Source: Candidatus Magasanikbacteria bacterium RIFCSPHIGHO2_01_FULL_33_34 (lineage in GTDB: Bacteria > Patescibacteriota > Patescibacteriia > Magasanikbacterales > UBA922). From it: a stretch of 64,000 nucleotides of DNA. The translations under genes were made by a program, and so were the position numbers. Positions 11,465 to 60,964 of the stretch are shown piece by piece. Each line of letters opens with the position of its first letter. The first letter of the stretch is position 1. Where the stretch lies: assembly GCA_001782825.1 (NCBI GenBank), contig MFPS01000007.1:84487-148486 (forward strand), in the 5' to 3' direction. The notes below the pieces were generated by a model, which had not been told where the DNA came from, ran no database searches, and saw only the letters and a program-made list of their open reading frames with translations.

Positions 11465-11640
11465 AATTAGTGTGAATTAATTTATAAATATAAAATAGAA
11501 TTAATAATTAGAGATTATTATGAGCGGATTTGATGCCACAAAAGACATCACCCTCGGAGCCACAGCGAGAATGAGCGAATGATAATCTCTAATTATTAAT
11601 TATTCTATTAAATAATAATTTTTAAATTAATTCACACTAC
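11465..11640. promoter_or_regulatory. Nested-hairpin intergenic element A, carrying the conserved core GGATTTGAT-N15-CATCACCCTCGGAGCC-ANNGCGAGAATGAG. Candidate cis-regulatory leader or structured RNA.
   Basis: Outer stem 11469-11484 pairs with 11622-11637 (16 bp). Inner stem 11498-11520 pairs with 11580-11605. The loop 11521-11580 matches the loops of elements B (20821-20932) and C (42488-42562). Abuts the start codon of the GT4 gene at 11464. Confidence 0.45.
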
Positions 11641-11738
11641 TCATTAATTATTCAATCCTGGACTTTTTACCTAAAAAAGGCTAAAATTATATTACTATTA
11701 AATTAATCTTACTCTATATAGACTTCAATTTCAAGCAT

Positions 11739-20789: not shown

Positions 20790-20820
20790 ATTTATATGTA
20801 ATAAGAATTGAGGACATTAT

Positions 20821-20932
20821 TTATAATTAAGCATTAGTTTGTTTATTTATTTTTACGGATTTGATACCCATAACAGGCATCACCCTCGGAGCCAAGGCGA
20901 GAATGAGTAAAAACAAATAAACAAACTAATGC
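20821..20932. promoter_or_regulatory. Hairpin-embedded intergenic element B, same conserved core as element A
   Basis: Stem GCATTAGTTTGTTTATTTATTTTTAC (20821-20846) pairs with GTAAAAACAAATAAACAAACTAATGC (20907-20932). Loop reads ...GGATTTGATACCCATAACAGGCATCACCCTCGGAGCCAAGGCGAGAATGAG. It lies 32 nt upstream of the GT4 start at 20789. Confidence 0.45.
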
Positions 20933-20977
20933 GATCGTAGATGAAATATAAACAATGCTATTATATCTTACAACTTA

Positions 20978-22333
20978 TTATATAAACAAACCCAATTTTT
21001 CCTTTAATTTGTCCATGCTTAATAGTAAATCAATTATAGCATTTAAACTTATTATTCCAAAAGCCATAATAAAAGCTTTTTCTTTGATATTTTTCTTATT
21101 TTGCCACAACAATACCGCTCCATATCCAGCTAATAATGAAAGCAATGGATATATTTGAAATCTATATCTAGTTTCAACCACAGTAATAAATAATATCAGT
21201 GGAGTTAAAAAAATAAACGCAAAAATATAATTTAACGTATTTGATCTTTGCGACCACAATTTAATAGAGGCATACAAAGACAAGACAAATAACAAAAGTG
21301 ACCAAACAGCCGAAGACATCAAAAATAAAAATTGACTAATACCTGAATCATAAAACCAAAAACCCATCGGTCGTATAACACTAAAATATCTATTTATCCT
21401 AAGTGCGGTCAGACGAATAAAATCCAATGGATAATTACGAACAAAAATTTTAAATTCATCGATAGACTTATCAGATACCAAATATGCGCCATATTCTACT
21501 ATAAAATCCTCTACCTCCTCTGGCTTGTCTTGTTCACCAGTTGCACCAACATGATTGCCTATCCAAAAATTATAACCACCAGCTGCGCCAAAAGGCATTA
21601 TTTTTTCATAAGCCATATAATTACGGACTGTCCACGGTGTAAATATAGCACCGATAGCCACAGACATTATAATTATTTGTTTGTATTTTTTCTTGAATAC
21701 AAAATACAAAAATATAACAGGCAACACAAAAAGTACCGGTGGTCTCGCCAAAACAGCCAAGCCACTAATTATCCCTAAAGATATAGCATTAATCCAAGAT
21801 TTTGATCCAGAAATTTTCTCTTTATCAATAAAGTTTAAAAAATACCAAATAAGCCATGTCCAAAAAAATATATATAATGTCTCTGTCATAAGCATAGCAG
21901 AAATCTCTACTAAATCTGGAGAAAAACCAAATATAATAGTAGAGCCCAAAGCCATCAATTCAACTTTTTCGTATTTTTTAAATAAAATTTTAGCAGATAA
22001 ATAAACAAAATAAGCGGACACAGTATGTAACAAAGCCTGAATTATCCAAACTACTTCATAATTGTGCCCAAATACCAAATAAATAAATGCCAAAAAATAT
22101 TGGTATAATGGACCGACTCTGGTTATGGCTTTATCAAACTTAACATCTGCGCCAGCATCTTCTACAAAACCATTACCAGAAATTATATTTTGAGCAATAT
22201 GATCATAGGCTCTAGCGTCAACCACTGGATGAATTCTAAAAACAAAAGAATAGGCAATACACAAAAAAAGAGACCCTAACAAAATATATAATAAAGGTTT
22301 CTTTTTGAGATTATTTTTAACCTCCTCAAACAT
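20978..22333 (-). CDS. GT-C fold membrane glycosyltransferase (ArnT/PMT-like)
   Basis: 451 aa polytopic membrane protein immediately downstream of a Dpm1-like GT2 (9-nt gap). Confidence 0.5.
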   Translation of the reverse strand: MFEEVKNNLKKKPLLYILLGSLFLCIAYSFVFRIHPVVDARAYDHIAQNIISGNGFVEDAGADVKFDKAITRVGPLYQYFLAFIYLVFGHNYEVVWIIQALLHTVSAYFVYLSAKILFKKYEKVELMALGSTIIFGFSPDLVEISAMLMTETLYIFFWTWLIWYFLNFIDKEKISGSKSWINAISLGIISGLAVLARPPVLFVLPVIFLYFVFKKKYKQIIIMSVAIGAIFTPWTVRNYMAYEKIMPFGAAGGYNFWIGNHVGATGEQDKPEEVEDFIVEYGAYLVSDKSIDEFKIFVRNYPLDFIRLTALRINRYFSVIRPMGFWFYDSGISQFLFLMSSAVWSLLLFVLSLYASIKLWSQRSNTLNYIFAFIFLTPLILFITVVETRYRFQIYPLLSLLAGYGAVLLWQNKKNIKEKAFIMAFGIISLNAIIDLLLSMDKLKEKLGLFI

Positions 22334-31436: not shown

Positions 31437-33272
31437 TTAAAAAAATTTCTTATACCAAATTTGAAAAGTAATTAATGCCCACAATAAATTCATATTATAT
31501 GCTTTCTTATTAATATGATTATCTAACATTTTTCTTATTTCATCAAAATTAAAATATTCTTTTGTTTCTGGTATATAATTCTCAGACAAAACTTCATACG
31601 CCAATTCTTTCATATCAGTCCGCAACCATTCTGAAACTGGTGAGAACCACCCTCTTTTTGGTTGATTTAAAATATAATCTGGAATATATTTACTCATCGC
31701 TTCTTTAAAAATTGCTTTCGTATTTTTTCCTTTGATCTTCCATTTTGTTGGAATTTTCAAAGATAATTCTACCAAACGATGATCAAGTATTGGTACCCGT
31801 TGCTCAAGTCCGTAGGCCATAGACATTTTGTCACTACGAATTAAAGATTCGTCTACTAGCCATGAACGAATATCTGCCCACATAAATTGCTTTTCAAAAT
31901 CTTCAATTTTATTATTAAAATAATTTTCTCTATATATTTTCTCTACACTCAAATAATTACTATATTTATTTTTTAAAAATAAAGAAATATCTTTCTCTTC
32001 TTGGGCCATAAACGATAAATATCTTTTCTCGTCTGCAGGTAAATTTAATTTTGCTAAAGACTTATTTTTATGCTTGAATAAATTAATAAAAAGATTTCCA
32101 AATGACACTCTCAAAAAGCTAGGAATTTTTTGGTAATTACTTATCAATTTACTCATACGATAACGTTCATAACCACCAAACAATTCATCCCCACCGTCTC
32201 CTCCCAAAACTACTACCACCTCTTGACTAGTCCTCTTAGATAAAATATAAGTAGCAATTTGCGTAGCATTAGCGACTGGCTCATCCATATGTTCAATCAC
32301 ATCAAACAAATTATCTCGTGCGTCAGAGCCTGTAATTTCTATTTCTGTATGGTCTGTTTTATAATATTCACTTGTCCTTTTTGCCAAATCTGCATCTATA
32401 TTGAATTTATTGACCTTCACATCATAATTGGCTGAAAAAGTTTTTACTTTGCTCTTTGTGATTTCACTTACAAGTCCTGTTATAACAGTAGAATCAATTC
32501 CACCACTTAAAAATACCCCAACCGGTCTATCTGAAATTAATTGTAATCGTACAGAATCTTTCATCAAATTTCTTATTTGCGATATTGCTTCTTTCTTGTC
32601 TTCAATATTTGCAAAGTCCTTTGGCTCCCAATATTTTTCTTTAGTTAATTTATTATCCTTGTAAACTAAATATGAACCTGATTCTAATTTATTTATTCCG
32701 TCAAACATTGTTAATGGCGCTGGCACATAAAGAGTCCTAAAATATATGTTTAGTGCATCAGTATTTATTTTCCTCTCTATACCATGCTCCAAAATACTTT
32801 TAATTTCTGAAGAAAAAATAAATTTATCATTATCATAATAATAATATAATGGTTTTACACCTACTCTATCTCTAGCCAAAAATATACTTTTATCACTCTT
32901 GTCAAAAATTGCAAATGAGAAAATTCCATTAAATTTTTGCAAACATTCAACTCCATACTCCTTGTATGAATTTATAATAACTTCTGAATCACTATCTGAC
33001 AAAAATTTGTAACCCTTACTCTTCAAATCCTTCCGTATATCTTGAAAATTATAAATTTCTCCATTAAATACCAAAACCAATGAATCATCTGTACTAAACA
33101 TAGGCTGACTAGCTTTGTCTGACAAATCAATAATCGCTAGTCTAGTATGTCCCAAAGAAATATTATCACACACAAATATGCCATCACCATCAGGGCCACG
33201 GTGCTTTATTTTGTTATTCATTTTTCTTATTAATTCTTCACTGGAAAAATTGAAACCATTTATTCCACACAT
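31437..33272 (-). CDS. asnB: Asparagine synthetase B-type glutamine-dependent amidotransferase (probably a sugar-uronate amidase such as WbpS rather than a housekeeping AsnB)
   Basis: N-terminal MCGINGF (Ntn nucleophile Cys2); PP-loop SGGIDS; 611 aa; embedded in the glycan locus. Confidence 0.8.
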   Translation of the reverse strand: MCGINGFNFSSEELIRKMNNKIKHRGPDGDGIFVCDNISLGHTRLAIIDLSDKASQPMFSTDDSLVLVFNGEIYNFQDIRKDLKSKGYKFLSDSDSEVIINSYKEYGVECLQKFNGIFSFAIFDKSDKSIFLARDRVGVKPLYYYYDNDKFIFSSEIKSILEHGIERKINTDALNIYFRTLYVPAPLTMFDGINKLESGSYLVYKDNKLTKEKYWEPKDFANIEDKKEAISQIRNLMKDSVRLQLISDRPVGVFLSGGIDSTVITGLVSEITKSKVKTFSANYDVKVNKFNIDADLAKRTSEYYKTDHTEIEITGSDARDNLFDVIEHMDEPVANATQIATYILSKRTSQEVVVVLGGDGGDELFGGYERYRMSKLISNYQKIPSFLRVSFGNLFINLFKHKNKSLAKLNLPADEKRYLSFMAQEEKDISLFLKNKYSNYLSVEKIYRENYFNNKIEDFEKQFMWADIRSWLVDESLIRSDKMSMAYGLEQRVPILDHRLVELSLKIPTKWKIKGKNTKAIFKEAMSKYIPDYILNQPKRGWFSPVSEWLRTDMKELAYEVLSENYIPETKEYFNFDEIRKMLDNHINKKAYNMNLLWALITFQIWYKKFF

Positions 33273-33319
33273 AAAAATAGTTCTTAGCTATTAGTCCATA
33301 GCCAATAGTTCAATTGATT

Positions 33320-33673
33320 TTAAACATATAATTTCTCACGATATTTATATAACATTTTTAAAATTTCCAATAAAAGATTATCAGCTTTAGTAAATAATTT
33401 TATTCCTGCAAAATTTAATTTTTTTGCTATGACAATTTGAGTTTCAAGTTCAGTTGCAGAACCAAAGGAAATGTTAACAAACTGCGCATTTTCTTTTTTA
33501 CTCTTTCTTGCATACCCTTCGGCAATATTGGATGGTATTGAAATTGCACACCTTCTCATCTGTGAAATAATACCAAATTTTTCTTCCACTGGAAACAAAT
33601 TTGTTAATTTATAAATTTCTACCACTAATTCAATAGATTTCTGCCAAACAATCAAATCTTTATAAGTATTCAT
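33320..33673 (-). CDS. Four-helix-bundle protein (TIGR02436-like; the family often encoded in 23S rRNA intervening sequences)
   Basis: MNTYKDLIVWQKSIELVVEIYKLTNLFPVEEKFGIISQMRRCAISIPSNIAEGYAR. 117 aa. Confidence 0.65.
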   Translation of the reverse strand: MNTYKDLIVWQKSIELVVEIYKLTNLFPVEEKFGIISQMRRCAISIPSNIAEGYARKSKKENAQFVNISFGSATELETQIVIAKKLNFAGIKLFTKADNLLLEILKMLYKYREKLYV

Positions 33674-33683
33674 AGTTTTTACT

Positions 33684-33725
33684 ACTGGCTACTGGCTATT
33701 GGCTATTGGCTATTGACTAATGGCT
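33684..33725. repeat. Heptanucleotide tandem repeat (ACTGGCT/ATTGGCT/ATTGACT, 6 units) overlapping the gmd stop codon and lying 11 nt upstream of the four-helix-bundle gene
   Basis: actggct actggct attggct attggct attgact aatggct. Inverted copies (CCAATAG / GCTATTAG) occur at 33277-33298 on the other side of the four-helix gene. Confidence 0.6.
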
Positions 33726-34687
33726 TCCAAATCTGCTTCTACCATCAATTTAACTAATTCCTTAAACTTTACTTTTGGTTCCCAACCAAGTTTTTCTTTG
33801 GCTTTTGAATAATCACCTACCAATAAATCTACTTCGGCCGGACGCAAGAATCTCTCATCAAACTCTACATAATCTTCCCAATTCAAATTAACAAAACCAA
33901 AAGCCTCTTCCAAAAATTCTCTAACTGTATGTGTCTCACCTGTAGCTATAACATAATCATCCGGTTCATCTTGTTGGAGCATCAACCACATTGCCTCTAC
34001 ATATTCTTTTGCATAACCCCAATCCCGTTTAGAATCTAAATTTCCTAATATAATCTTATTACTTAATCCATTTTTAATTTCTGCCACCCCTTTGGTGATT
34101 TTTTTAGTGACAAAATTCTCTCCTCTTCTAGGAGATTCATGATTAAATAAGATTCCACTACAAGCAAACATCCCATAACTTTCACGATAATTTATTGTCT
34201 GGTGATGCGCAAATACTTTTGCACATGCATAAGGACTCCTAGGATGAAAACAAGTTTTTTCATTCTGCGGAGTTTCAGATACCTTCCCATACATTTCACT
34301 ACTTGAAGCTTGATAAAACTTTGTTTTTATTCCACTATCTTTAATTGCCTCTAACAATCTTATAACACCCACACCTGTAATATCTGCAGTATACGCTGGT
34401 ATATCAAAACTAATTCTAACATGACTTTGAGCTGCTAGATTATATATTTCATCTGGCTGTATATTATACAAAAGCTTAGAAATATTTGTCCCATCAGACA
34501 AATCACCATAATACAAAAATAATTTTTTATCTTTATATTTTTCAAATAAATGCTCAATTCTAGAACGAAATAATATACTATTTCTTCTTACAATTCCATG
34601 AACTTCATAACCTTTCTCAAGTAATAACTCCGTCAGATATGAGCCATCTTGCCCTGTAATCCCAGTAATAAATGCTTTTTTTATCAT
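33710..34687 (-). CDS. gmd: GDP-mannose 4,6-dehydratase
   Basis: [35 protein letters not shown] is the signature Gmd N-terminus. The track start at 34723 is an extension; Met13 chosen. Confidence 0.85.
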
Positions 34688-34747
34688 AAATAATAAATTT
34701 ACTTGATTATATTGATTAAACAATGTCTATATTAAAATAAATATATT

Positions 34748-42432: not shown

Positions 42433-42487
42433 ATTTAAATTATTAGAATCATCAGTATTATTTATAATTAAGTATTATTTCCAATTA

Positions 42488-42562
42488 TTTATTTTTACGG
42501 ATTTGTTTGTACCAACAGACAAACACCTCGGAGCCCGTAGGCAATGTGTAAATTGAAATCCA
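42488..42562. promoter_or_regulatory. Intergenic element C, a degenerate copy of the A/B core (TTTATTTTTACGGATTTGTT...ACACCTCGGAGCC)
   Basis: Shares TATTTATTTTTACGGATTTG with element B and CCTCGGAGCC with A and B; lies 56 nt upstream of the uxs start codon. Confidence 0.35.
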
Positions 42563-42680
42563 GCCTAAGGAGACATACAACCATAATAATAACTTTATTT
42601 ATCTATTTTGTCAAGTAAAAAAATGGCTAATTTAAGCAAAAATTTTATATAATAATGATGATTGATGTAAGAATTAATAA

Positions 42681-44390
42681 TTAAAATTTATAGACTTTAA
42701 AGACATCTTCATTACGATGATTTTTAATAAATTCAGGTTCAATACCCTTCTCTAATAAATATTTCTCAAAAGCAGTAGTCTCTACTTTTAATTTGTATGG
42801 CGCATAGAGCGGACCGACATTAAAATCTTTTTGTTCCACGCCGGTAAAATAAAGAAAATGTTCCACTCCTTGTTCTCTATAATATTCATCCCATTTGTCC
42901 CCAGTAATATTGAAAAACGCCTCATCAGACATTACTGGCCAACTATTATAAATAAGCCTTCTTTGAAATGTCCATAAACGAGACAAAAAATTAAAATCAT
43001 AATCATAAATAATAACCAATGCATATTTTGTAAAATTTTTTCTTGTCTCATTTTCTATCTGTTTATTTTGCAAATCTACCATAAATTGATATATAGGCTT
43101 GCCAAAGGCATCGGAAGTTTTGCCATACAAATAATCATCTAGGTAATCATTTACCTCAACAAAACCAAAATTTTGTTCTTCAACATTTATTTGCGCATAA
43201 TCAATATTCATTTTCCCTAAAGAAGGTGAAATTAAAAAACTATTGACAGTAAACAATAACTCAGACACAAAAATAAAACCTAAAAATAAATAAATAAATT
43301 TTTTATATTTTCCCCATTCAAATAATTTTGCAAAGATATATGCAATGAGTAAAATAAAATATGGTATTATCATCACTACAAAACGTAAAGTTGAACCAAT
43401 AATCAAAAACCAAAAACTTTCTAAAATAATTGTAGCCAATAAGAAAAGGACAAGCTTTGATCTATTTCTTATATACAAATAAATTGCAGTCAAAATAGAA
43501 AAAGAAATTATAAAATTAAAAATTATACTATTAGCTTGACGCAAAATTTCAAAGAAAAATATAAACCTATCACCTACTCTGCCAACCATTGCTCTTCCTT
43601 GCCTAAACTGCCACCGCTCAACATGCTGATTTAATAAGGCCGAAACTTGAAAATCAAAATGCCCAAAATTTTTATAAAGAAACAAATTATATAACCAAAA
43701 TGGAAAACTAAAAATTATAGTGCTTAATACACCATAATAAAAAAATTTATTTTTAATAAAACTATATTTATAAATTACAGCATAAATGAGTAAAATAGGT
43801 ACAATTATCAATACTGTAAGTTTAGTAATAATCCCCAGGCCAAGAGTGATTCCCCACAAAATCCACAAATACAATTTGTTCTCATCTAATGCTTTTATCC
43901 AAAGAAATAGTATAAGTAATGAAAAAAAGATAACTGTACCATCTTGAATACCCAGTCTAGACACCCATACATGATAAGATTGCATTGAGAACAATAACCC
44001 AGCGATATAACCAGCTCTCTTGTTTATAAGACGAGTAGCAATAAGATATATCAAAAAAACCGAAGCAATACCAAATAAAACAGATGGCGAACGCAAACCA
44101 AGCATATTCTCGCCCAATATACCTATACTTATGTGCTGTATTAAGAAAAATAATATAGGGTGATCATGAAAAGATAAATGCATCCACCATGGTACTTTAT
44201 CTACCCATTGCCATGGGGTTGTTTGTACAAGAGACAAATCATAATCAATCATAGAAATTGCCCTAAAACCTGTCAAAACTTCATCAGTATATGGATCATG
44301 AGAATCTACATTGAAAAACCTCAAAAAACTGGCTAAAAATATAATAGCAATAATAAGTAAAAAACCTTTACTTTTAAATTTTTTTAACAT
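42681..44390 (-). CDS. GT-C fold membrane glycosyltransferase (ArnT/PMT-like) with a large C-terminal soluble domain
   Basis: 569 aa; about 12 N-terminal TM helices, then a hydrophilic C-terminal ~180 aa. Confidence 0.5.
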   Translation of the reverse strand: MLKKFKSKGFLLIIAIIFLASFLRFFNVDSHDPYTDEVLTGFRAISMIDYDLSLVQTTPWQWVDKVPWWMHLSFHDHPILFFLIQHISIGILGENMLGLRSPSVLFGIASVFLIYLIATRLINKRAGYIAGLLFSMQSYHVWVSRLGIQDGTVIFFSLLILFLWIKALDENKLYLWILWGITLGLGIITKLTVLIIVPILLIYAVIYKYSFIKNKFFYYGVLSTIIFSFPFWLYNLFLYKNFGHFDFQVSALLNQHVERWQFRQGRAMVGRVGDRFIFFFEILRQANSIIFNFIISFSILTAIYLYIRNRSKLVLFLLATIILESFWFLIIGSTLRFVVMIIPYFILLIAYIFAKLFEWGKYKKFIYLFLGFIFVSELLFTVNSFLISPSLGKMNIDYAQINVEEQNFGFVEVNDYLDDYLYGKTSDAFGKPIYQFMVDLQNKQIENETRKNFTKYALVIIYDYDFNFLSRLWTFQRRLIYNSWPVMSDEAFFNITGDKWDEYYREQGVEHFLYFTGVEQKDFNVGPLYAPYKLKVETTAFEKYLLEKGIEPEFIKNHRNEDVFKVYKF

Positions 44391-44476: not shown

Positions 44477-45826
44477 TTATGATGACAATTCTTCACCATC
44501 TGGATATTCTTCTGAATCTTCTACTGTTACAATTCTATCCCATCTATATCCTAGATTTTTAAAAGCTTGTTCATCAGTTATATGTCTCTTTAAACCACCT
44601 TCTAGACGATATACTCTTGAATCATCTAAATACTTAATAAGAGTAAAATTAGGATGACGATCTGTATAATTTATCTCAGTTCCAACTGTATATTTGTCCA
44701 ATAATGATTCATCAATATCTTCTATCCAATTCCATTTATATCCCAATGTATTAAACACTGCTTCATCAGTTATCCAATATTTTTCTGTACCAAGTAATAA
44801 ATAAACTTTTGGATCACTAACTATTTTGACTAATGCGCCATATTTTGGATCATATTTTGATCCCCATGGCATAAAGCCTAAATTATCCTCATCCAAAGCA
44901 TCCAAACTTTCTCTTGAAACAACATTTACATCATTCCAACTATCAAAATAAGTAAAGAATACTCGTGAATTATTGAAAGATCTTTTTTTACAATCTTTAG
45001 TCACATAATATACAGCTGAAGATTGTGAACGCTTGAAAGCCTTACCAACTTGTAATGAACAACCCAGAGGGCCCTGTTCAGGTTCTAAATCTGACACAGC
45101 CATAGAATCTGCTGACGTCAATTCAACAAACTTAAACTGTGGTTTAAGACTACTGGTTGACAAGCCATAATAAGTAACCCGTAAATCAGTCCAACCATTG
45201 CCATCAGTATCTATATCTTTAGTTTCATTCTTGTTTAGAGACATTCTGAGAGGTTTTGATGAGATTGTTAATAATGCAATTGCATCTGACGCGCTTGTGA
45301 CCACAACTGTATGAGAAGCTGATGTTAATGATAAAGCAAAAGGATCATTTACATTCAAGGTTACCTCTACCGTGGTTGTGTCCGGAGTTTGAGTAGTACT
45401 ACTTCCTCCGCCACCACCACTACCAGGACTCACTCCACTACCACTACCGCCACCACTACCGCCAGTACATGAATTGGCTGCACCAGGAGTAATAGTCAGA
45501 GTTATACTAGATGAACACTGCATTGCAATTGTAGACAAACTATCTGTACAGGTTGATGCTAGCACTTCACAACCAGCGCTAGGTGTTAATTTACTTCTAT
45601 TAGTAGATCTAATTTCAACAATAGAGCTATCCTGCATTACAAATGCTATATCATTAGTATTTACAGTAAAAGATTCTACACGTGTCGCATTTGTCAAAGT
45701 ATAAGTTAAACCATTACCAGGAAGTAAAATATCTGCACTACCAGAAACCGTCACATCGTTAAATGCGGCTAATACGACAGATGGTACTAACAACAGCGCA
45801 AATATAATAAATAATATTTTCTTCAT
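44477..45826 (-). CDS. Secreted protein with signal peptide, Gly/Ser-rich linker and two C-terminal ~45-aa repeats (VYLLLGTEKYWITDEAVFNTLGYKW / VYRLEGGLKRHITDEQAFKNLGYRW)
   Basis: MKKILFIIFALLLVPSVVLA signal; GGSGGGSGSG linker; the same repeat type occurs three times at the N-terminus of the 1251-aa protein. Confidence 0.5.
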   Translation of the reverse strand: MKKILFIIFALLLVPSVVLAAFNDVTVSGSADILLPGNGLTYTLTNATRVESFTVNTNDIAFVMQDSSIVEIRSTNRSKLTPSAGCEVLASTCTDSLSTIAMQCSSSITLTITPGAANSCTGGSGGGSGSGVSPGSGGGGGSSTTQTPDTTTVEVTLNVNDPFALSLTSASHTVVVTSASDAIALLTISSKPLRMSLNKNETKDIDTDGNGWTDLRVTYYGLSTSSLKPQFKFVELTSADSMAVSDLEPEQGPLGCSLQVGKAFKRSQSSAVYYVTKDCKKRSFNNSRVFFTYFDSWNDVNVVSRESLDALDEDNLGFMPWGSKYDPKYGALVKIVSDPKVYLLLGTEKYWITDEAVFNTLGYKWNWIEDIDESLLDKYTVGTEINYTDRHPNFTLIKYLDDSRVYRLEGGLKRHITDEQAFKNLGYRWDRIVTVEDSEEYPDGEELSS

Positions 45827-47147: not shown

Positions 47148-48329
47148 ATGAAAAAAAATAAACTAAAACTTCTCTATCTTATCACCCAAGGACATTGGGG
47201 TGGAGCCCAAAAATATGTATTTGATTTAGCTACAGCGCTAACTGATGAATATGATATTACAGTAGCTGTTGGAGAACCAAATAATCTACCTGATTTACAA
47301 AAAAAATTATTAACCAACCAAAAAATCAAACTAGTTCAACTTAATTTTTTGCAAAGATCTATTTCTCCTATAAAAGACTTTTTGGCTCTACTTGAAATCA
47401 ATAATCTATATCGCAAAATCAAACCAGATATTGTCCACCTCAATAGTACCAAAGCCGGCATTCTCGGCTCATTTGCTTGTCAAATGTCAAATGTCAAATG
47501 TCAAATGTTGGTATATACTGTCCATGGCTGGGTTTTTAATGAACCTATGAACAAATTTAAAAAATACATATATAAAATAATGGAAGGTATAAGTTCACGA
47601 CGCAAAGATAAGATTATTGTATTATCTGACAATGAAAAAGAAACAGGTATAAATTTATTGAATATCAAAAAAGATAAATTTGTAATAATTCCAGTCGGTA
47701 TTGAATCTAACATAACTACCCTAAACAGAGTGAACGCTATAAACAAAATAAATAATACTTTCAAAAAAAATATACTAAAGCAAGATGATTATATAATTGG
47801 CACAATTGCAAACTTCTATCCTACAAAAAATTTAAGTAGTCTAATAGAAGCAATCAATATTGTTAAAAACAAATTAAACAATTTTCATAGTATAATCATT
47901 GGCGAAGGAGAAGAAAGAGTACATCTGGAATTTTTGATAAAAAAATATAATCTTGAAAACAATATACATTTAACCGGTTTTATTGATAATGCTCAAAACC
48001 TCCTAAAAGCATTCAATGTATTTGTGTTACCTTCCAAAAAAGAAGGTATACCTTATACCATAATAGAAGCCAGAATAAATAATATCCCAATCATAGCCAC
48101 CAATGTTGGTTCTATATACAAAATAATTGACAATATGAAAACTGGCATACTTCTGGAACCAGAAAATACTCAAAAACTTGCCGAGGCATTGATTTATGCC
48201 TATGAAAATCAAAAAGAAATGATCGCAATGGCAAATGCATCCAAAGAACAAAATCTACCAGAATATCTCAAAAACACCATGATTATAGAAACAGCCAATA
48301 TATACAAAAATTTTACCAATAAATCCTAG
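47148..48329 (+). CDS. GT4 (GT-B) glycosyltransferase containing an in-frame heptanucleotide tandem repeat
   Basis: 393 aa; C-terminal PSKKEGIPYTIIEARINNIPIIATNVGS; (GTCAAAT)x4 at 47479-47506 encodes CQMSNVKCQM. Confidence 0.65.
   Translation: MKKNKLKLLYLITQGHWGGAQKYVFDLATALTDEYDITVAVGEPNNLPDLQKKLLTNQKIKLVQLNFLQRSISPIKDFLALLEINNLYRKIKPDIVHLNSTKAGILGSFACQMSNVKCQMLVYTVHGWVFNEPMNKFKKYIYKIMEGISSRRKDKIIVLSDNEKETGINLLNIKKDKFVIIPVGIESNITTLNRVNAINKINNTFKKNILKQDDYIIGTIANFYPTKNLSSLIEAINIVKNKLNNFHSIIIGEGEERVHLEFLIKKYNLENNIHLTGFIDNAQNLLKAFNVFVLPSKKEGIPYTIIEARINNIPIIATNVGSIYKIIDNMKTGILLEPENTQKLAEALIYAYENQKEMIAMANASKEQNLPEYLKNTMIIETANIYKNFTNKS
47479..47506 (+). repeat. (GTCAAAT)x4 heptanucleotide tandem repeat inside a GT4 coding sequence (candidate slipped-strand phase-variation tract)
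   Basis: Four perfect 7-bp units plus a partial GT. The unit length is not a multiple of 3, so a +/-1 unit change shifts the frame. Confidence 0.7.
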
Positions 48330-51840: not shown

Positions 51841-51960
51841 ATTTAAACATTAAAACATATAAACATACAAACATATAAACATTTTACAAATCTTAAAATA
51901 CTCTACTAAAAATGTTTAAATGCTTATATGTTTGTATGTTTATATCTTAATCTATTGTGT
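51841..51960. repeat. TAAACAT-unit inverted-repeat array X (about 30-bp arms)
   Basis: Left arm ATATAAACATACAAACATATAAACATTTT; right arm AAAATGTTTAAATGCTTATATGTTTGTATGTTTATAT. Related arrays occur at 52611-52670 and 58795-58925. Confidence 0.5.
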
Positions 51961-52614
51961 AGTAGCTGAGTCTGGGTAAAGTTGATTAATTTTATTCTGT
52001 ACTTCTTGAGATTTTTCTGGATTATTACGATTATAAAATAATAATAATCTATTCAAAATATCAAAATTATTATTGGTTGTCGCCAAACCATTTAAATATG
52101 TTTGTTCTGCAGATGCCATATCTTGTAATTGAAATTCTTCAACCAAAGCAAGAGAAATATATAAGTCTGGATCTCCTGGAGATAACTCTATAGCCAATCT
52201 ATAATATTCTTTAGCAGATTTATAATCTTTTAGATTATTTTTATAAACTTCAGCAATATTTCTATAACCCAAAATATTATTATTCTGTAATATTATTGAT
52301 TGCCTAAAAGCCTCTACCGCCCCCTCATAATCTTCTAAAACAGTTTTAAGATTGCCAATAGCAATCCAAGTCTCCCAAATATCTGGACTCTCCAGATACA
52401 TTGCTTTAGTCTCATCAATTTTTACTTGTATTACCGCTCTGGTTGCCTCATCTTTTCCTTCTGGTATAGAAATATTCTCAAACGGATCAATCACTTTGTC
52501 AACCATTGCGCTATTATCTGTAATTTTTGCTTCTTTGTTATAAATATAATATCCAACCGCACCAATTAAAATGGCAATTATTATTATATATAATAGTATT
52601 TTTTTATTTTTCAT
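51952..52614 (-). CDS. TPR-repeat protein with N-terminal TM anchor
   Basis: 220 aa; LLYIIIIAILIGAVGYYIY TM; TPR-like helices (AVEAFRQSIILQNN, AKEYYRLAIELSPGD). Confidence 0.5.
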   Translation of the reverse strand: MKNKKILLYIIIIAILIGAVGYYIYNKEAKITDNSAMVDKVIDPFENISIPEGKDEATRAVIQVKIDETKAMYLESPDIWETWIAIGNLKTVLEDYEGAVEAFRQSIILQNNNILGYRNIAEVYKNNLKDYKSAKEYYRLAIELSPGDPDLYISLALVEEFQLQDMASAEQTYLNGLATTNNNFDILNRLLLFYNRNNPEKSQEVQNKINQLYPDSATTQ

Positions 52615-52670
52615 AATGTTTATATATTTTAATGTTTATATGTTTATGTATTTCATATTTTAACATAAAT

Positions 52671-52759: not shown

Positions 52760-55700
52760 TTAGAGAGCAACTACAGTAGGTGTGGTTGAAGCTGAGCCTA
52801 AACCAGAAATCAAGAATCCATTTGTCCAGTCATTTGTAGTCGTAGCATGTGCGCTAAGATGTCTATCTGACCAGATAAAGTCATCATGTGTTTCACCGTC
52901 AACATTAGTTGCTTTTTCCATCAACAATGCAGGTGTACCACCTTCAGCAACAGAAGCGTCGCCACCCAATCTAGTGGAAACTGAAGCGCCTGATGCAGCA
53001 CCAGTTACAGTACCACGAAGAACATAAGTTCTAGGTGTACCTAGAGCAACTGTTCTAGCTTCACCACCTTGACCTGTACCACTTGAATCTGTATCAAATA
53101 GAGCTTCAAAGTATCCATTTGCATAAGCTGTTGTTGCAGAACTATACAATGACACTTCTGTCTCATCTGTTACATCTAATACTTCAACATTAGTTACAGT
53201 TGCAGTTGTAGTTGTCATATCAAATACAAATTTGTATAGATCAATATCGCTAGTATTAGCGGTTACTTTGAATTTATACAAATCAACTGAACCGTTAGAC
53301 AATGTTCCACCGACTGTAAGTTTTGTTACAGTTGGAACACCTCTATACATGTAGTTAGTATTTCCAGTTGGAGCAGTTGTACCAAGATACTCTACCGCAC
53401 CGCTTCCAGTTTGAGCACCTTTAGCAGTCATATCTCCAGCAGCAGTAATCTTGAAACCAAGTCTATGTCCGCCAACTGTTACATTTTGTGATGAACCAAT
53501 ATTACTCAAATTAGCTTTCAAGTACATTTTTTGTCCATCAACATCATCTTTGTTAACTACAAAGGCACCTGAGCTGAATTCTATTACTGGAGTAGTTGAA
53601 GTTGGAACAACTGAACCAACGACTACACCAGCTTCATTTTCAAGATACAACAAGTTGTAATCTAGGTAAGATGAAGATGCAGTGGCTGTAACGACTTGAG
53701 TGAATTTAACTCTCTCCATTTCTACATTTTCTGTAGTAGTAGCCAAGAAGTTAAATACAGCAAGAGTTGCGCCTTGAGTACCAGCAGCAAATAATTTTGC
53801 AGTTGGGTTTGAACTGTCAAGAGATGCTTGAACAACACCACCAGCAGTTCCCACTGTCATTGAATTTCCAGAAGCAGTATCAATTGATTCAGTTACAGTG
53901 TTGTTTGTACTAACACCAATAGCTGTTACAAAGTTTGATGTACTTACAGCCATATTGTGAGTTCCAGCTGTAGCGCCACCTGAGATGTCACCACGAACTT
54001 CTACTACCAATGATTTGCCTTTAGCAACTGTAAATTGGTCAGCACTGGAAAGATTGAAGGTATAATCTTCAGATCCACCGGTTGTACCTGTACCAGCGTT
54101 TACAACTGATAATTGTTCAAGTGTACCACTACTATTGAATGAATCACCATCTTTGTCTACCCATAGAGTAACATTTTGAATGTGATTAGTTGCAACATTA
54201 GCTGCATGTCTAACTTTGAACTGAGTAACTTTCAACGCTTCAGAAGATCCGGTAGCATCTAATTGTACTTTAGCAAAGGTTATACCACTTGTTCCAGGAG
54301 CAAATGTTTGTGCTGCAGGAGTAGATAATGTGGTTATACGCAATGCTGCTGTAGTAATAGTTCTTGCATTAGCTGCCACAGTACCTGAACCTGGATATAC
54401 TTCCTGTGTACTACCAGAAAGTTCATAGTCATCCCCACTATCAACACCTTTAGCAACAAAATTGTCAGCTTTTTGGTCAATAGCTACAGTAATAATATCA
54501 CCATTTGCTGGTGTTGAATCAATATTACCTTTCAAAGTAAGAATATTGTCTCCGACTGGAAGAGTCATTGTGTCAGTTGAAGTAGCATATCCTGGACTGG
54601 CAGCGCCAACTCCATCTACTCCACTTATCAATGCTTTGCCAGCTGAATCATACAATGTCAAAGCATCAAAAGCGGTTGGTACTGCTGTACCGGTACCGGT
54701 AACAGTAAGCTTGAACACTATAGTTGAAACATCAACTGCTTCACCAGTAACTCTGAAATTCCATGAACCAAGTTCTACACCATTGGCCGCTTCTGGCACA
54801 TTACCAGCTGGGACATTGTTTACTTTTGTAATATTCAATGTTCCAGGACCAACCTGAACAATGTTTGACATATCTGAAGCACTGTTTGTAGGCAATCTGT
54901 AAACATTGGTATTTAGTTCTCTAACAAGAACATGTGATGCTCTTTTAACATCCAAGTCCATGTTACGGGTTGTACCGTTAAGTACATCACCATAAACTCC
55001 ATACTGTTTGTTATTACCTTTTACTATTTTACAATCATCACCACAGCTTGTCAGATCAAAGCTAACGTATTTTCCATCCCATACACCATCAGCAATTTTA
55101 TTGCTATTGTATGTAAGGTGAATATTAGCAAAATCAGAAGCTGAAGCTGTACCTCTGTTATAAAGAGTAATTCTCTCTACTCTTCCATCTTGAGTAGCAG
55201 TAGAGATTTGTAAGTTAGCAAGATTTACTCCTGTTTCACCGACTCTCTTTGTTACTGTTCCAACTGAAGCGCCCTGAGTTACAGTGGAAGTTCCCAAAGT
55301 AATACTAGCATTCAAGCTAACTGGATTTCCATGTAATGGAAGAGAACCGACTACTGTTGAGGCTGTCTCAACTGAGTAAACCGCCAATGTTGGCACGTTA
55401 CCACCTGTTACAGTACCCATATCGCCAACAAGAGTATATGTTTTTGTTACTCCTGATGGGATTGTTAGATCTTCAGAAAAAGATACTAAGTGATCAGAGT
55501 TAAGTGTTTTACCAGCTTCATTCAATAAATTTCCATCTGGTTTAACAACATTAATTGTACTAAAATCACCATCAACTCCTACTCCACCACGAAGCACTTT
55601 CAATGTTTTGATTACTACATCACCGCCTGTGGCTGTGAAGTTAACCTTTGTGAAAGCTAAACGTGATTGATTGGAATAACCATAAGTTCCAGATGGAGTG

Positions 55701-56515
55701 TCAGAAGCCAAAGCTACTGTCAAAGTTCCAACTGTTCCAGTACCTGTTCCTGTTCCTGTTCCAGTACCAGTTCCTGTTCCAACTCCGCCTGCTCCTTGTG
55801 TAGGATCAGCGTAAAGACTAGCAGATGTTACACTACCAGAACCTTCAGATACAGAATCTAATACAGCTTGTGATACAACTTGTACGTCAGCCATATTGCG
55901 AACAGAACCGTCAACCATATAACGCATACCATCCATTACCTTATAAGTAGTACCGCCAGCAACTTTTACTAGCATACCATTATGAGGTACGGCTTCTGTA
56001 AGCTCAGCACCAGAAGTTGAGTAGTTTGGCCAGAAAACATCAGCGATGTCTACTACCTTACTAGCCCAGTTACTTCCATATAGAGCTGAAGCTACAGCTT
56101 CGCTACCAACTTTGGCAAGAACATTGCCAGGTTGAACAGCGTATACACTTGGTGAGATTTGAACCTTAACTAACATTGAGCCAGGTCTGTAGTTAACACC
56201 AAATGGGGCACTTGATGGTGCAGGGTATGCATCCACACAAGTGGTTGGGATTTCAACAACCCCAGAAAAATCACTGAACCATGTTTTGTACACAGTTGAG
56301 TGTGGGAAATACAAACGTTCCATGTTGCCATTTAGCAAGTACACTGCACTATTACCAGGCACCTTGAAAAGGTCTCCAGCTTCTAGTGTAGGACAAGCTG
56401 CTTGTGCATTTGCAACCACTGGTACAAGAGCAGCAACGCCCATGCTCCAAAGGATTGTAAGCACAACTACTGACCATGTAAATGTTTTCTTTCCTAATCT
56501 TATTACATTCGTCAT
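52760..56515 (-). CDS. Giant secreted cell-surface protein (1251 aa), Thr/Gly/Val/Ser-rich, with a (GT)n run and N-terminal ~45-aa repeats; putative S-layer or adhesin-like glycoprotein
   Basis: Signal peptide MTNVIRLGKKTFTWSVVVLTILWSMGVAALVPVVANAQA; GVGTGTGTGTGTGTGTGTVG; about 18% Thr; three N-terminal repeats of the type also found in the 44477 protein. Confidence 0.55.
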   Translation of the reverse strand: MTNVIRLGKKTFTWSVVVLTILWSMGVAALVPVVANAQAACPTLEAGDLFKVPGNSAVYLLNGNMERLYFPHSTVYKTWFSDFSGVVEIPTTCVDAYPAPSSAPFGVNYRPGSMLVKVQISPSVYAVQPGNVLAKVGSEAVASALYGSNWASKVVDIADVFWPNYSTSGAELTEAVPHNGMLVKVAGGTTYKVMDGMRYMVDGSVRNMADVQVVSQAVLDSVSEGSGSVTSASLYADPTQGAGGVGTGTGTGTGTGTGTGTVGTLTVALASDTPSGTYGYSNQSRLAFTKVNFTATGGDVVIKTLKVLRGGVGVDGDFSTINVVKPDGNLLNEAGKTLNSDHLVSFSEDLTIPSGVTKTYTLVGDMGTVTGGNVPTLAVYSVETASTVVGSLPLHGNPVSLNASITLGTSTVTQGASVGTVTKRVGETGVNLANLQISTATQDGRVERITLYNRGTASASDFANIHLTYNSNKIADGVWDGKYVSFDLTSCGDDCKIVKGNNKQYGVYGDVLNGTTRNMDLDVKRASHVLVRELNTNVYRLPTNSASDMSNIVQVGPGTLNITKVNNVPAGNVPEAANGVELGSWNFRVTGEAVDVSTIVFKLTVTGTGTAVPTAFDALTLYDSAGKALISGVDGVGAASPGYATSTDTMTLPVGDNILTLKGNIDSTPANGDIITVAIDQKADNFVAKGVDSGDDYELSGSTQEVYPGSGTVAANARTITTAALRITTLSTPAAQTFAPGTSGITFAKVQLDATGSSEALKVTQFKVRHAANVATNHIQNVTLWVDKDGDSFNSSGTLEQLSVVNAGTGTTGGSEDYTFNLSSADQFTVAKGKSLVVEVRGDISGGATAGTHNMAVSTSNFVTAIGVSTNNTVTESIDTASGNSMTVGTAGGVVQASLDSSNPTAKLFAAGTQGATLAVFNFLATTTENVEMERVKFTQVVTATASSSYLDYNLLYLENEAGVVVGSVVPTSTTPVIEFSSGAFVVNKDDVDGQKMYLKANLSNIGSSQNVTVGGHRLGFKITAAGDMTAKGAQTGSGAVEYLGTTAPTGNTNYMYRGVPTVTKLTVGGTLSNGSVDLYKFKVTANTSDIDLYKFVFDMTTTTATVTNVEVLDVTDETEVSLYSSATTAYANGYFEALFDTDSSGTGQGGEARTVALGTPRTYVLRGTVTGAASGASVSTRLGGDASVAEGGTPALLMEKATNVDGETHDDFIWSDRHLSAHATTTNDWTNGFLISGLGSASTTPTVVAL

Positions 56516-58204: not shown

Positions 58205-58768
58205 TTATTTTTTCTTTGGGCTTTTAGGCTCAACAAATTCTTTTAATTTTTTGGTAGCGCGATAGATTATTATTCGTACATTTGTTGCGCTGATATCCAA
58301 TATGCCTGCAATATCTTTGGTTGACAAACCTTCTATATATCTCAAATGTATTACTTCCTGATACTCATGTTTTAATTTTTTTATAGATTTTATCAAATCT
58401 TGCTGTTCTTCTTTTACTTCAATATCTATTCGCAAATCATTACCAACCAATGTCTCAGTCGCCACATCAATCAAACACTCATTCTTTCTGGCGCGCTCAC
58501 GATACACATCAATTATTCTATTTCTAGCAATTCTATAAACCAATTGTCTAAAACTGGTAATATCTCTCGGTTTCTCAATCAAATAATCCCAAGTTTTTAA
58601 AAAGACTTCAGAAGATATATCTTCAGCATCCTCACGATTGGATAATTTAAAAAAAACAAACCTATAAATCGGTTGAATATAAAAATCATACAATTTAGCA
58701 AATGCTTCTGTATCTCTCTTGCTGATCACTTTGTAAACTAATAATTTCTCTTCTATATGAGTCTTCAT
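58205..58768 (-). CDS. ECF-type sigma-70 family RNA polymerase sigma factor
   Basis: Region 2 (FAKLYDFYIQPIYRFVFFKLSNREDAEDISSEVFLKTWDYL) and region 4 HTH (LSTKDIAGILDISATNVRIIIYRATKKLKE). The track start at 58870 overlaps a palindromic array; Met35 chosen. Confidence 0.75.
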   Translation of the reverse strand: MKTHIEEKLLVYKVISKRDTEAFAKLYDFYIQPIYRFVFFKLSNREDAEDISSEVFLKTWDYLIEKPRDITSFRQLVYRIARNRIIDVYRERARKNECLIDVATETLVGNDLRIDIEVKEEQQDLIKSIKKLKHEYQEVIHLRYIEGLSTKDIAGILDISATNVRIIIYRATKKLKEFVEPKSPKKK

Positions 58769-58794
58769 ATATATAGACGGGAAAATGGTTAAAA

Positions 58795-58925
58795 TGTTAC
58801 ACTCTATGGCATTTAAACATGTAAGCATATAAACATTTAAACATATGGTGATTTCATCAATATGTTTCAACCCACATGTTTAAATGTTTGTATGTTTTAA
58901 TGTTTATATGTTTTAAATGCCAAAA
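58795..58925. repeat. TAAACAT-unit inverted-repeat array Z, immediately upstream of the ECF sigma gene
   Basis: GGCATTTAAACATGTAAGCATATAAACATTTAAACATATGG ... CATGTTTAAATGTTTGTATGTTTTAATGTTTATATGTTTTAAATGCC. Confidence 0.5.
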
Positions 58926-59460: not shown

Positions 59461-59799
59461 ATGACAGATTTGCCTACAATTGATCAATCCAAAGAAATAG
59501 TAAGAGTGTCAATTTCTGAAGCTGCTCGTTTATTTGGAGTGAATGCCCAGACTATACGTAGGGCAATCCAATCTGGCGAGATTACTTATGTGGTGGTAGC
59601 TGGTAGATACAAGCTAAACTTTGAAAGCCTTGTCAGATGGTCTCAAACCAAAACTACAGTTAAAAACAAATCAGAAAAGTTTGGTATCGGGCAATATGTG
59701 GATAAATGGAAGATAAAGAACACACTCTACTCCCCTAGCACCAAGAGCATAAAAACATCTAAACATAAAAACATAAAAACATCAGAACCGTCAGCCTAA
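59461..59799 (+). CDS. Helix-turn-helix DNA-binding protein of the excisionase/MerR-like 'excise' family
   Basis: VSISEAARLFGVNAQTIRRAIQSGEITYVVVAGRYKLNFESLVRW follows the excisionase-family DNA-binding pattern. 112 aa; Lys/Ser-rich C-terminal tail encoded by an (AAAACATA)x3 repeat. Confidence 0.5.
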   Translation: MTDLPTIDQSKEIVRVSISEAARLFGVNAQTIRRAIQSGEITYVVVAGRYKLNFESLVRWSQTKTTVKNKSEKFGIGQYVDKWKIKNTLYSPSTKSIKTSKHKNIKTSEPSA

Positions 59800-59953: not shown

Positions 59954-60943
59954 TCATGGGTAGACGCAAGTGTTTGTGCCCACGTCGCAGTATGGCGACG
60001 GTGGACACGAATCTCCACACGGCAAGGCCGTGTAAAGGGTGCAGTGCCAGTCTTCATAGCACTGCACGCAGGTGCCATCCAGGCACTTGCGTTTGTCCGA
60101 CGGACAGTCGGAGTGCCCACTGCACTCCGGTTCCGGCTTGTCGCAGGTGCACTCACCGGCGACGCAGGAGTAGCCGTCGTCGCAGACGACCAGTTCGTGC
60201 TGGCAACCTAGAGTTGCGTCGCACGAATCGGTCGTACAGCTGTCACCGTCGTCGCACCCACCCAATGGGGGGGCAACTTGGTCACACAAACATGTGTCCG
60301 GGTTTTGTGCCCAGACACCGTTGCACGCGTCCTCGTCATCACAGACGAGGGGCGCGCAGCTCGGCGGAGCGTCACACTCCGGAACACCGGCATCCGGTGT
60401 CCCAAGGGGACATGTCGGACACGTCGGTTCCGGAGTGCATCCACTGGAAGTCGAGCAAAACTCTCCTTCGTTGCAGATTGTGCTGTCGGGGACCTGGAAA
60501 CACCCAGTACCCTCGACACACACGCCGACGGTGCAGACGAACGGGTCGTTGCAAGCGGGCGGTTCGCCCGGACGACATTCGCCGTCCAGACAGCGCTCCG
60601 CGCCGTTGCAGAACAACCCGTCGTTGCAGTCCAGATCCATTTCACAGGTCTCCGGACAACCGACACACGTGGGCGGACCCACGCACTCGTTGCGACTCTC
60701 GTCGCAGGTCATGCCGTTTTGACACAGGTCACCGGTGTGGGCACATTCGCCCACTCCGATACAGTACTCCACGCCATTACAGAACAACCCGTCCTGCGGA
60801 CAATCGCAAGCGTTACCGCCTGCATCATCCGCCGAACCAGCGTCAAGGGTAGAATTGCCGTTTGGCAACTCCACCCCGAAGTGGTCACGGCCCTCACCGC
60901 AAGCGGCGAGAGCCAAGAAAGCAAGAATGAGGATTCTCATCAT
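59954..60943 (-). CDS. Cysteine-rich secreted lipoprotein (about 16% Cys) with repeated DGLFCNG.E.C / CDDGDSC-type modules
   Basis: Signal peptide plus lipobox (LALAAC-G); repeats DGLFCNGVEYC, DGLFCNGAERC, CDDEDACNG, CDDGDSCTTDSCD. 329 aa; high GC3. Confidence 0.5.
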   Translation of the reverse strand: MMRILILAFLALAACGEGRDHFGVELPNGNSTLDAGSADDAGGNACDCPQDGLFCNGVEYCIGVGECAHTGDLCQNGMTCDESRNECVGPPTCVGCPETCEMDLDCNDGLFCNGAERCLDGECRPGEPPACNDPFVCTVGVCVEGTGCFQVPDSTICNEGEFCSTSSGCTPEPTCPTCPLGTPDAGVPECDAPPSCAPLVCDDEDACNGVWAQNPDTCLCDQVAPPLGGCDDGDSCTTDSCDATLGCQHELVVCDDGYSCVAGECTCDKPEPECSGHSDCPSDKRKCLDGTCVQCYEDWHCTLYTALPCGDSCPPSPYCDVGTNTCVYP

Positions 60944-60964
60944 TTTCTTTTCTTTCTGCCACCC

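Follow-up and report, generated by a model that had tools for sequence, protein, structure and literature searches.

In the 64,000-nucleotide window analysed here (positions 84,487 to 148,486 of contig MFPS01000007.1, assembly GCA_001782825.1, Candidatus Magasanikbacteria bacterium RIFCSPHIGHO2_01_FULL_33_34), a gene for a 117-amino-acid four-helix-bundle protein of the PF05635/TIGR02436 family lies between gmd and asnB, bracketed by two arrays of tandem heptamers in inverted orientation. This cassette is an insertion with sharp ends, and the same unit, written in the same heptamer dialect, is present in other operons of the lineage. The architecture is general for the PF05635 family in bacteria and phage contigs: the arrays have a period of 7 or 8, their arms are complementary within a locus, and their units differ from lineage to lineage. 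As a composite explanation, we consider it probable that this is an operon-embedded 'foldback' cassette of the intervening-sequence (IVS) type, transcribed together with its host operon. The insertion itself, its contexts, the complementary arrays, the sense orientation, the purifying selection on the protein and the existence of derivatives without an open reading frame (ORF) are held with high confidence; processing of the RNA stem by RNase III, argued by analogy, is a serious possibility that we stop short of calling probable.

The gmd-asnB cassette and its relatives

All genes near the cassette lie on the minus strand, within a long sugar/glycan cluster. The features of the locus are the following.

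31437..33272, minus strand: asnB-type amidotransferase of the asparagine synthase family, host gene downstream of the cassette (TIGR01536, 482 bits)
33276..33309, minus strand: 3' arm, degenerate array built of the reverse-complement unit (Tandem Repeats Finder period 14, that is 2 x 7; inverted repeats I1-I4)
33286..33308, no strand assigned: best inverted-repeat arm, pairing with 33703-33725 (inverted repeat I3; closing stem of the RNA fold)
33320..33673, minus strand: four-helix-bundle protein gene, 117 amino acids (PF05635/TIGR02436, '23S rRNA intervening-sequence protein', Avd-like), in the loop of the predicted foldback
33674..33681, minus strand: short A-rich spacer, the GTAAAAACT region, from the 5' array to the ATG of the ORF (read from the sequence)
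33682..33725, minus strand: 5' arm, tandem heptamer array (Tandem Repeats Finder; pairs with the 3' arm in minimum free energy (MFE) and centroid folds)
33703..33725, no strand assigned: partner arm of the best inverted repeat (I3; RNA fold)
33710..33712, minus strand: gmd stop codon TAG, provided by a repeat unit inside the 5' array
33710..34723, minus strand: gmd, GDP-mannose 4,6-dehydratase, host gene upstream of the cassette (TIGR01472, 518 bits)

Read along the coding strand, gmd ends with GAA GCC ATT AGT CAA TAG, and CCAATAG (twice), CCAGTAG (twice), TAAAAACT and the ATG of the 117-amino-acid ORF follow; after the TAA of the ORF come aatcaattgaa, CTATTGG CTATGGA CTAATAG CTAAGAA, CTATTTTT and the ATG of asnB. 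The final four gmd codons (A-I-S-Q) are themselves array units. On the minus strand the 5' array reads AGCCATT AGTCAAT AGCCAAT AGCCAAT AGCCAGT AGCCAGT and puts TAG into all three frames; Tandem Repeats Finder assigns it, over 33682-33725, a period of 7, 6.3 copies, 89% matches and a score of 60. The 3' array, CTATTGG CTATGGA CTAATAG CTAAGAA CTATT on the same strand, ends 3 nt before the asnB ATG, and its strict 23-nt arm (33286-33308) ends 13 nt before that codon. This arm is complementary to 33703-33725 at 21 of 23 positions (91%) across a distance of 394 nt, and looser pairings reach 34 nt. The MFE and centroid RNA folds of the cassette both close with a stem formed by the arrays. The spacer at 33674..33681 has no obvious Shine-Dalgarno sequence; the relatives L005 and L007 carry GGGGG there.

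A sequence-only reading of the window had already placed a TIGR02436-like four-helix-bundle gene for 117 amino acids between asnB and gmd, with a six-unit heptamer array running through the gmd stop codon and the same heptamer inverted on the far side. Each of these points stands, given the neighbours' matches and the array and arm coordinates above, and given the scores of the protein, which reach 122.7 bits against TIGR02436 (cutoff 24) and 129.6 bits against PF05635 (cutoff 33.8), the latter over profile positions 1-105 of 106. The left flank that it described, the 23-mer AGCTATTAGTCCATAGCCAATAG, is likewise present, at 33286-33308 rather than at 33277-33298, coordinates which were about 9 nt too low. 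Heptamer arrays are not strewn over the window, as might be expected if the flanks were just terminator or promoter sequence. The single heptamer CTATTGG is not enriched (6 found vs 7.95 expected), near-matches to CTATTGGCTATTGG number 12 against 6.5 expected, with 6 of the 12 falling within the two flanks, and the tandem form of the heptamer is concentrated at the cassette site. A scan with CTATTGG found no second cassette in the window. Because both Rfam, at its gathering threshold, and a tRNA scan of the whole window gave no matches, rRNA included, the locus has no rRNA or tRNA context.

The nearest solved relative of the protein is XCC0516 (PDB 2GSC, E 1e-22), and PDB 2RLD also matches (E 3e-4). 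Across 26 homologs 19 residues are invariant, among them G34, Q38, R41, S45, N49, E52 and R56, and a polar motif G..R...S...N..E occupies one helix, as described for PF05635 proteins (PMC3936711). Compared with the folA-tmk copy described below, the window copy has a ratio of nonsynonymous to synonymous substitution (dN/dS) of 0.12, which indicates that the protein is kept by purifying selection. No defence-system model of PADLOC fits it.

That the gene is part of a cassette-like insertion, as the sequence-only reading supposed, is borne out by relatives in which the junction is empty, differently filled or duplicated elsewhere. An identical protein occurs in many assemblies of one Candidatus Magasanikbacteria population, always at gmd-asnB. 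Two instructive relatives, L093 and L094, were found by a metagenome scan with the asnB protein (asnB identity 78% and 72%, respectively). In L093 a spacer of 55 nt, and no cassette, separates a 3' remnant of gmd from asnB; in the global alignment homology stops at ...ATGGTAGAAGCAGATTT, just before the 5' array, and resumes at TTTATGTGTGG, and these breaks coincide exactly with the outer ends of both arrays. In L094, where gmd is 82% identical, the same junction (L094 2028-2505) carries a 132-amino-acid PF05635 ORF (E 8.7e-12) that has no BLASTP similarity to the window ORF. Its brackets are made of other units, CTAATT... upstream and ...AATTAG downstream, which are mostly 9 nt long (CTAATTCAT CTAATTGCT CTAATTAAT ...), are mirrored downstream and pair into a closing stem in MFE and centroid structures. 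This suggests that the gmd/asnB junction has been targeted repeatedly, or that the cassette there has been replaced.

Copies outside this junction share its dialect. Assembly GCA_001784315.1 contains the identical gmd-asnB locus together with a 78%-identical copy (L086) between folA and tmk, whose cassette also closes with a flank stem in MFE and centroid structures, and further copies lie between ybaB and recR in relatives. The 5' units are AGCCAAT/AGTTCAT and the 3' units CTATTGG/CTATGAA, and in each such copy the upstream stop codon is at the array edge and the downstream ATG directly follows the 3' array. As in miniature inverted-repeat and insertion-sequence elements, there are terminal inverted repeats, and multiple copies stand at unrelated sites of which occupied and empty versions are both found. 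The reading as an integron gene cassette was rejected: the repeats are on both sides, the tandem heptamers are not attC-like, and no integrase is among the neighbours. In the folA-tmk copy, the gene call starts at an ATT (L086 2501-2503; INTYRELIV...) aligned to the ATG of the window copy; the start there is either non-canonical or recently inactivated.

The layout across the PF05635 family

The strongest case against a chance origin of the arrays is comparative. One genome per species was scanned with a 26-sequence alignment, and 80 loci, picked by protein similarity alone, were obtained from Patescibacteria, Bacteroidota, Verrucomicrobiota, Acidobacteriota, Planctomycetota, Fibrobacter, Firmicutes and others; 78 of them were analysed. 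An array was called where a 28-nt window within the 100-nt flanks had at least 18 self-matches at some period, with the following frequencies.

Upstream flanks (78 loci): 64% with arrays; period 7 in 36, period 8 in 13, period 9 in 1
Downstream flanks (78 loci): 49% with arrays; period 7 in 28, period 8 in 8, period 4 in 1, period 12 in 1
Control, 468 random windows of the same loci: 4.9% with arrays; mixed periods, 7 in 13, 9 in 6, 12 in 3, 6 in 1

The two flanks of a locus match each other as inverted complements, with a median best score of 12 against 7 for flanks paired across loci (Mann-Whitney p 6e-38); in direct orientation a locus's own flanks have a median score of 6. Since the flanks are complementary within but not between loci, it is the architecture that is conserved while the sequence is free, a pattern of co-variation. 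In MFE folds of the 78 cassettes the 60-nt 5' and 3' flanks pair with each other over a median of 20 bp, compared with 4 in shifted controls (p 8e-20). In 72 of 76 loci (95%) the upstream neighbour has the same orientation as the ORF, in 60 of 76 both neighbours do, and the gaps to neighbours are typically 25-60 nt, with a median upstream gap of about 43 nt. Most of 29 homologs on IMG/VR viral contigs show the same brackets, GC-rich units included. A sense stop codon is present in 26 of 32 5' units, where 17.6 would be expected from shuffled units (binomial p 0.0018), and an antisense one in 13 of 32. The sequence-only reading, which had considered that relatives might carry the gene free of repeats, was vindicated in that relatives do carry them, but it missed that the layout is general to the family and resembles the stem of the ORF-bearing 23S rRNA IVS.

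Several homolog loci also contain inverted arrays of the local unit that enclose no ORF (L005 506-562, L058 2907-2998, L061 2693-2861), and all three of these were checked and sit immediately past the stop codon of a co-oriented gene. More ORF-less inverted heptamer or octamer arrays, built of the units of a nearby PF05635 cassette, are found at L022 1018-1097, L019 2325-2425 and L014 ~1430-1500. The array in L005 is a loop-less perfect hairpin of 4+4 units, and in L014 a further inverted pair lies immediately upstream of the cassette. L081 carries about 13 units of AAGTGAC (1325-1417) upstream of a PF05635 gene from Bacteroidetes, from which it follows that arrays can expand far past the usual 4-6 units.

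Proposed mechanism and rival explanations

According to the mechanism that we favour, a unit composed of a 5' tandem heptamer array, a PF05635 ORF and a 3' reverse-complement array inserted in sense orientation at the stop/start junction of gmd and asnB. The cassette would have no promoter of its own and would be read through from the host operon, as the co-orientation of the upstream neighbours and the short upstream gaps argue. In the transcript the arrays would then pair into a stem of about 22-27 bp, looping out the ORF and juxtaposing the gmd stop with the asnB start. Neither 7 nor 8 is a multiple of 3 and the 5' units usually hold a stop codon, so that such an array would end upstream translation in any frame, and insertion near any gene end could therefore be tolerated; at this locus, the array supplies the gmd stop itself. 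MacGregor raised the same point about three-frame stops for TAACTGA repeats (PMC4679880).

The stem would further be a substrate of RNase III, a step suggested by the rRNA IVS of Coxiella and Leptospira, for which RNase III processing has been demonstrated (PMC4990558). The 23S IVS of Coxiella burnetii, which encodes a protein of the same family, is the direct precedent: three tandem GACAGAT heptamers precede its S23p ORF, its mapped ends fall midway along the inverted-repeat stem, and the RNase III cut lies where the first repeat begins (PMC4990558).

A promoter specific to the cassette, which the sequence-only reading had associated with the repeats, found no support. If the arrays were the promoter and/or the terminator of an autonomously expressed cassette, the position of one of them immediately 5' of the ORF would be accounted for, and AT-rich repeats can mimic promoter elements. 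A scan of 33150-33850 found 3 promoter-like matches in 700 nt vs 3.5 expected, with neither a sigma-70-like promoter nor an intrinsic terminator in either array and no terminator-like site in the scanned region. The 95% co-orientation with the upstream gene across gaps of 25-60 nt also counts against such autonomy, as does the retention of the layout in other taxa by GC-rich units, and we regard this explanation as very improbable.

A number of observations weigh against the favoured mechanism, above all against its RNA stem. In 62 flank stems, transition mismatches on the sense strand are divided about equally between G·U and A·C (47 vs 54). Were a stem in the sense RNA under selection, G·U should be favoured; it is not in excess, there is therefore no sign that pairing is selected specifically in the sense RNA, and the complementarity could be maintained at the level of DNA, by cruciforms or foldback structures or through gene conversion among arms or among copies. 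The whole-cassette fold scores modestly better than its shuffled versions (z -1.9), and two inner 5' units (CCAGTAG twice) have no partner in the 3' arm. The three-frame stop is a tendency rather than a law, since a sense stop codon is missing from 19% of 5' units and the units of L094 are mostly 9 nt. The alignment with the empty L093 junction shows no clear target-site duplication, only A/T-rich runs, and the Pfam matches of the neighbours include no transposase or recombinase in or beside the cassette. Finally, solo heptamer arrays are widespread in other bacteria in the company of no PF05635 gene (PMC4679880, PMC4692102), and the arrays may for this reason have an independent life.

As a consequence of the mismatch test, our confidence in a mechanism acting through RNA alone was lowered and a DNA-level rival was kept. 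In this rival, the inverted arrays act at the level of DNA, by folding into a hairpin or a cruciform when it is single-stranded or supercoiled or by being substrates of recombination, and serve as ends for mobility or for copy-to-copy gene conversion, in the manner of eukaryotic Foldback transposons or REP/RAYT; the RNA stem would be a by-product, and this rival and the favoured mechanism could both hold. Besides the missing G·U excess, it is favoured by the mirror order of unit variants across the arms (I3), which resembles a true palindromic duplication, by the use of the local cassette's units in ORF-less hairpins, by unit dialects common to copies in different operons of one lineage, and by the presence of copies in phage contigs. 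The lack of a recombinase, a transposase or a target-site duplication speaks against it too, while the biases towards sense orientation and sense-strand stop codons are constraints at the level of RNA or translation, and RNase III cleavage of the equivalent stem has been shown experimentally in rRNA IVS (PMC4990558). We see this DNA-level element as a live rival, though a rather unlikely one.

The arrays could instead be tandem binding sites for a trans-acting protein, either the four-helix-bundle pentamer or a host RNA-binding regulator, which would control the cassette and/or the downstream gene, the inverted symmetry reflecting binding on both sides. Avd is a basic nucleic-acid-binding pentamer. 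Its homology has been noted (PMC10053308), a post-transcriptional regulator was proposed by MacGregor for TAACTGA repeats ending just ahead of start codons (PMC4679880), and the 3' array of the cassettes often abuts the downstream ATG. Units shared genome-wide by ORF-bearing and ORF-less copies are likewise what a cognate binder would lead one to expect. Such binding needs no reverse-complement arrays, however, and leaves stems of at least 20 bp unexplained, and the units differ greatly among proteins that are 50-60% identical and have the same invariant polar residues. This rival is also live, but we rate it below the DNA-level one.

Two further readings are unlikely, to different degrees. 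Heptameric simple-sequence repeats are known as phase-variation devices, and Coxiella strains vary in copy number, 2 vs 3 (PMC4990558), such that the cassette could be a contingency locus at which slipped-strand changes in heptamer number switch the cassette or asnB. Four independent assemblies from different samples nonetheless have exactly the arrays of the window, imperfect units (89%) suppress slippage, and the array is intergenic, with its mirror image on the gene's far side, which together leave this reading as improbable as that of a dedicated promoter. The ORF could also be the Avd accessory gene of a diversity-generating retroelement (DGR), with repeats that are unrelated to it. DGRs are common in candidate-phyla-radiation bacteria, and weak matches to Avd models exist (NF033474, 25.3 bits; PF22296, 26.7 bits). 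Both scores are below their cutoffs (80 and 40 bits), the neighbours belong to sugar pathways with no reverse transcriptase within about 3 kb on either side, and the 64-kb window holds no long repeat like a template/variable repeat pair (TR/VR). At this locus the DGR reading, the least probable of all, is effectively refuted.

Known elements, wider meaning and other features of the window

The cassette is best named an IVS-type element in a protein-coding operon rather than an IVS, for it has the protein family and the inverted repeats of an IVS but lies outside rRNA. ORF-bearing 23S rRNA IVS (Leptospira, Coxiella burnetii, Xanthomonas, Brucella and the rRNA genes of candidate-phyla-radiation bacteria) encode the same S23p/PF05635 family in sense orientation, enclosed by inverted repeats that form a long stem, and the three Coxiella GACAGAT heptamers directly precede the ATG (PMC4990558). 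They are regarded as selfish and possibly once mobile. The rRNA IVS sit in helix 9, 25 or 45 of the 23S rRNA, whereas the host here is the protein-coding gmd/asnB operon; here, too, the arrays carry stop codons and supply that of the upstream gene, and the ORF is under purifying selection, in contrast to the decaying Coxiella ORF. Excision through RNase III is established for the rRNA IVS of Coxiella and Leptospira (PMC4990558); for the present cassette it is a prediction.

Intergenic tandem heptamers form a second group of relatives, comprising the short tandemly repeated repetitive (STRR) sequences of cyanobacteria, GGGAATC of Xanthomonas, TAACTGA of Beggiatoaceae and the heptanucleotide elements of Geobacter. 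They also have a period of 7 and 2-6 or more units, they often end just before a start codon or overlap an upstream ORF's end, and TAACTGA has stops in three frames; they are mostly solo direct arrays, unlike the complementary pair around one gene family described here. Their function has been given as unknown (PMC4679880, PMC4692102, bioRxiv 10.1101/309039), and enigmatic arrays of this kind are recorded in Xanthomonas, where they include about 70 convergent pairs, and in Nostoc, Beggiatoaceae and Geobacter (PMC4692102, PMC4679880, PMC2700814). PF05635 genes themselves have been reported from rRNA insertions of candidate-phyla-radiation bacteria (bioRxiv 10.1101/2024.02.27.582315). Our literature search, which left most subscription journals outside, found no paper that links such repeats generally to PF05635 genes, the Coxiella IVS being the sole single case.

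The closest architectural parallel is with the eukaryotic Foldback (FB) transposons. These have long terminal inverted repeats made of short tandem repeats and a loop with or without an ORF, and copies of both types coexist. They differ from the cassette in being eukaryotic and in sharing no sequence or protein homology with it, and their loop genes are transposase-like, whereas the loop here encodes a 117-amino-acid helical bundle with no known catalytic motif. Functionally, the nearest parallel is with the hairpin repeats of operons that RNase III processes, such as the Correia elements of Neisseria, and also REP/BIME and ERIC. All of these are small inverted-repeat elements that lie between co-transcribed genes, share their transcript and have hairpins that are cut by RNase III or tune mRNA stability. 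Their arms are unique sequence, they hold no ORF and each family has one conserved sequence, as opposed to a conserved architecture with free sequence here. The Avd protein of DGRs, finally, has a homologous fold, a pentameric four-helix bundle, and acts on RNA that includes part of its own coding region; the present locus differs from that of Avd in having no reverse transcriptase, no TR/VR and scores under the Avd cutoffs.

Seen against this background, the locus and its 100-plus relatives imply that rRNA IVS are just one landing site of a far wider unit, a four-helix-bundle gene in a hairpin of inverted 7- or 8-nt repeats that resides within ordinary operons and phage genomes. This bears on the nature of the ORF-bearing 23S rRNA IVS and the role of S23p, a question standing since 1993, and on why tandem heptamers are the most abundant short repeat of prokaryotic intergenic DNA. 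While this instance is an IVS-type S23p element outside rRNA, the family-wide rule makes the origin of IVS and the heptamer puzzle directly testable, through RNase III processing, three-frame stop insulation and ORF-less derivatives, in cultivable carriers such as Bacteroides, Dysgonomonas, Xanthomonas and cyanobacteria. For annotation, it means that the ends of upstream genes can be encoded by an array, and that cassettes of this type inside cas operons, for instance between cmr3 and cmr2, were taken for CRISPR-associated genes (PMC3936711).

A bolder proposal, which we offer only tentatively and consider doubtful, is that PF05635 genes with inverted heptamer or octamer arrays constitute a previously unrecognised class of autonomous 'foldback' elements, pan-bacterial and phage-borne, of which ORF-less hairpins and solo arrays would be non-autonomous derivatives. 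If true, it would explain the origin of ORF-bearing rRNA IVS and much of the excess of intergenic heptamers, and the element would be copied or maintained by the Avd-like protein working on its own hairpin, whether RNA or DNA, perhaps together with a reverse transcriptase in the manner of DGRs.

Elsewhere in the window, a second dialect of tandem octamers, AAACATAT / ATGTTTAT, is found at 51843-51945, 52614-52647, 58809-58919 and 59748-59782. At two of these sites, ORF-less inverted pairs whose arms are 83-85% complementary enclose loops of about 25-30 nt, one array immediately precedes the ATG of a TPR gene (51952..52614, minus strand), one comes before a terminator-like hairpin, and a gene for an extracytoplasmic function (ECF) sigma factor (58205..58870, minus strand) adjoins one pair. 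The octamer arrays could be ORF-less relatives of the foldback hairpins, or else sites for a regulator or an ECF promoter.

A perfect tandem heptamer, TGTCAAA in 4.4 copies (100%), occupies 47478-47508 within a GT4-type glycosyltransferase ORF (47148..48329, plus strand), where it encodes ...CQMSNVKCQM...; because a change of one unit shifts the frame, this ORF is a candidate for a slipped-strand, phase-variable glycosyltransferase. A conserved motif of about 60-100 nt (…ACGGATTTG…CACCCTCGGAGCC…GCGAGAATGAG…) is common to the intergenic regions 11465-11740, 20790-20980 and 42433-42682, none of which matched Rfam at its gathering threshold. In the first two the motif lies inside local palindromes (I2, I14, I20), and no palindrome is listed for the third. 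It may act as a leader or regulatory RNA restricted to the lineage; a small repeat element belonging to the glycan clusters is the alternative.

At ~59850-62600 a 2.7-kb island of 57-63% G+C stands out from a genome of about 30% and has long overlapping ORFs on both strands. One of them (59954..60943, minus strand) has a weak match to a Cys-rich Dicty_CTDC-like repeat and the other island ORFs have no Pfam match; either foreign DNA or a repeat-protein gene of extreme composition could account for the island. Large ORFs contain in-frame coding repeats of hexamers or dodecamers at 45411-45464 (CCACTA/CCACCACCACTA) and at 55732-55780 (CTGTTC in 8 copies, in the 1251-amino-acid ORF 52760..56515); these are probably low-complexity segments of surface proteins.

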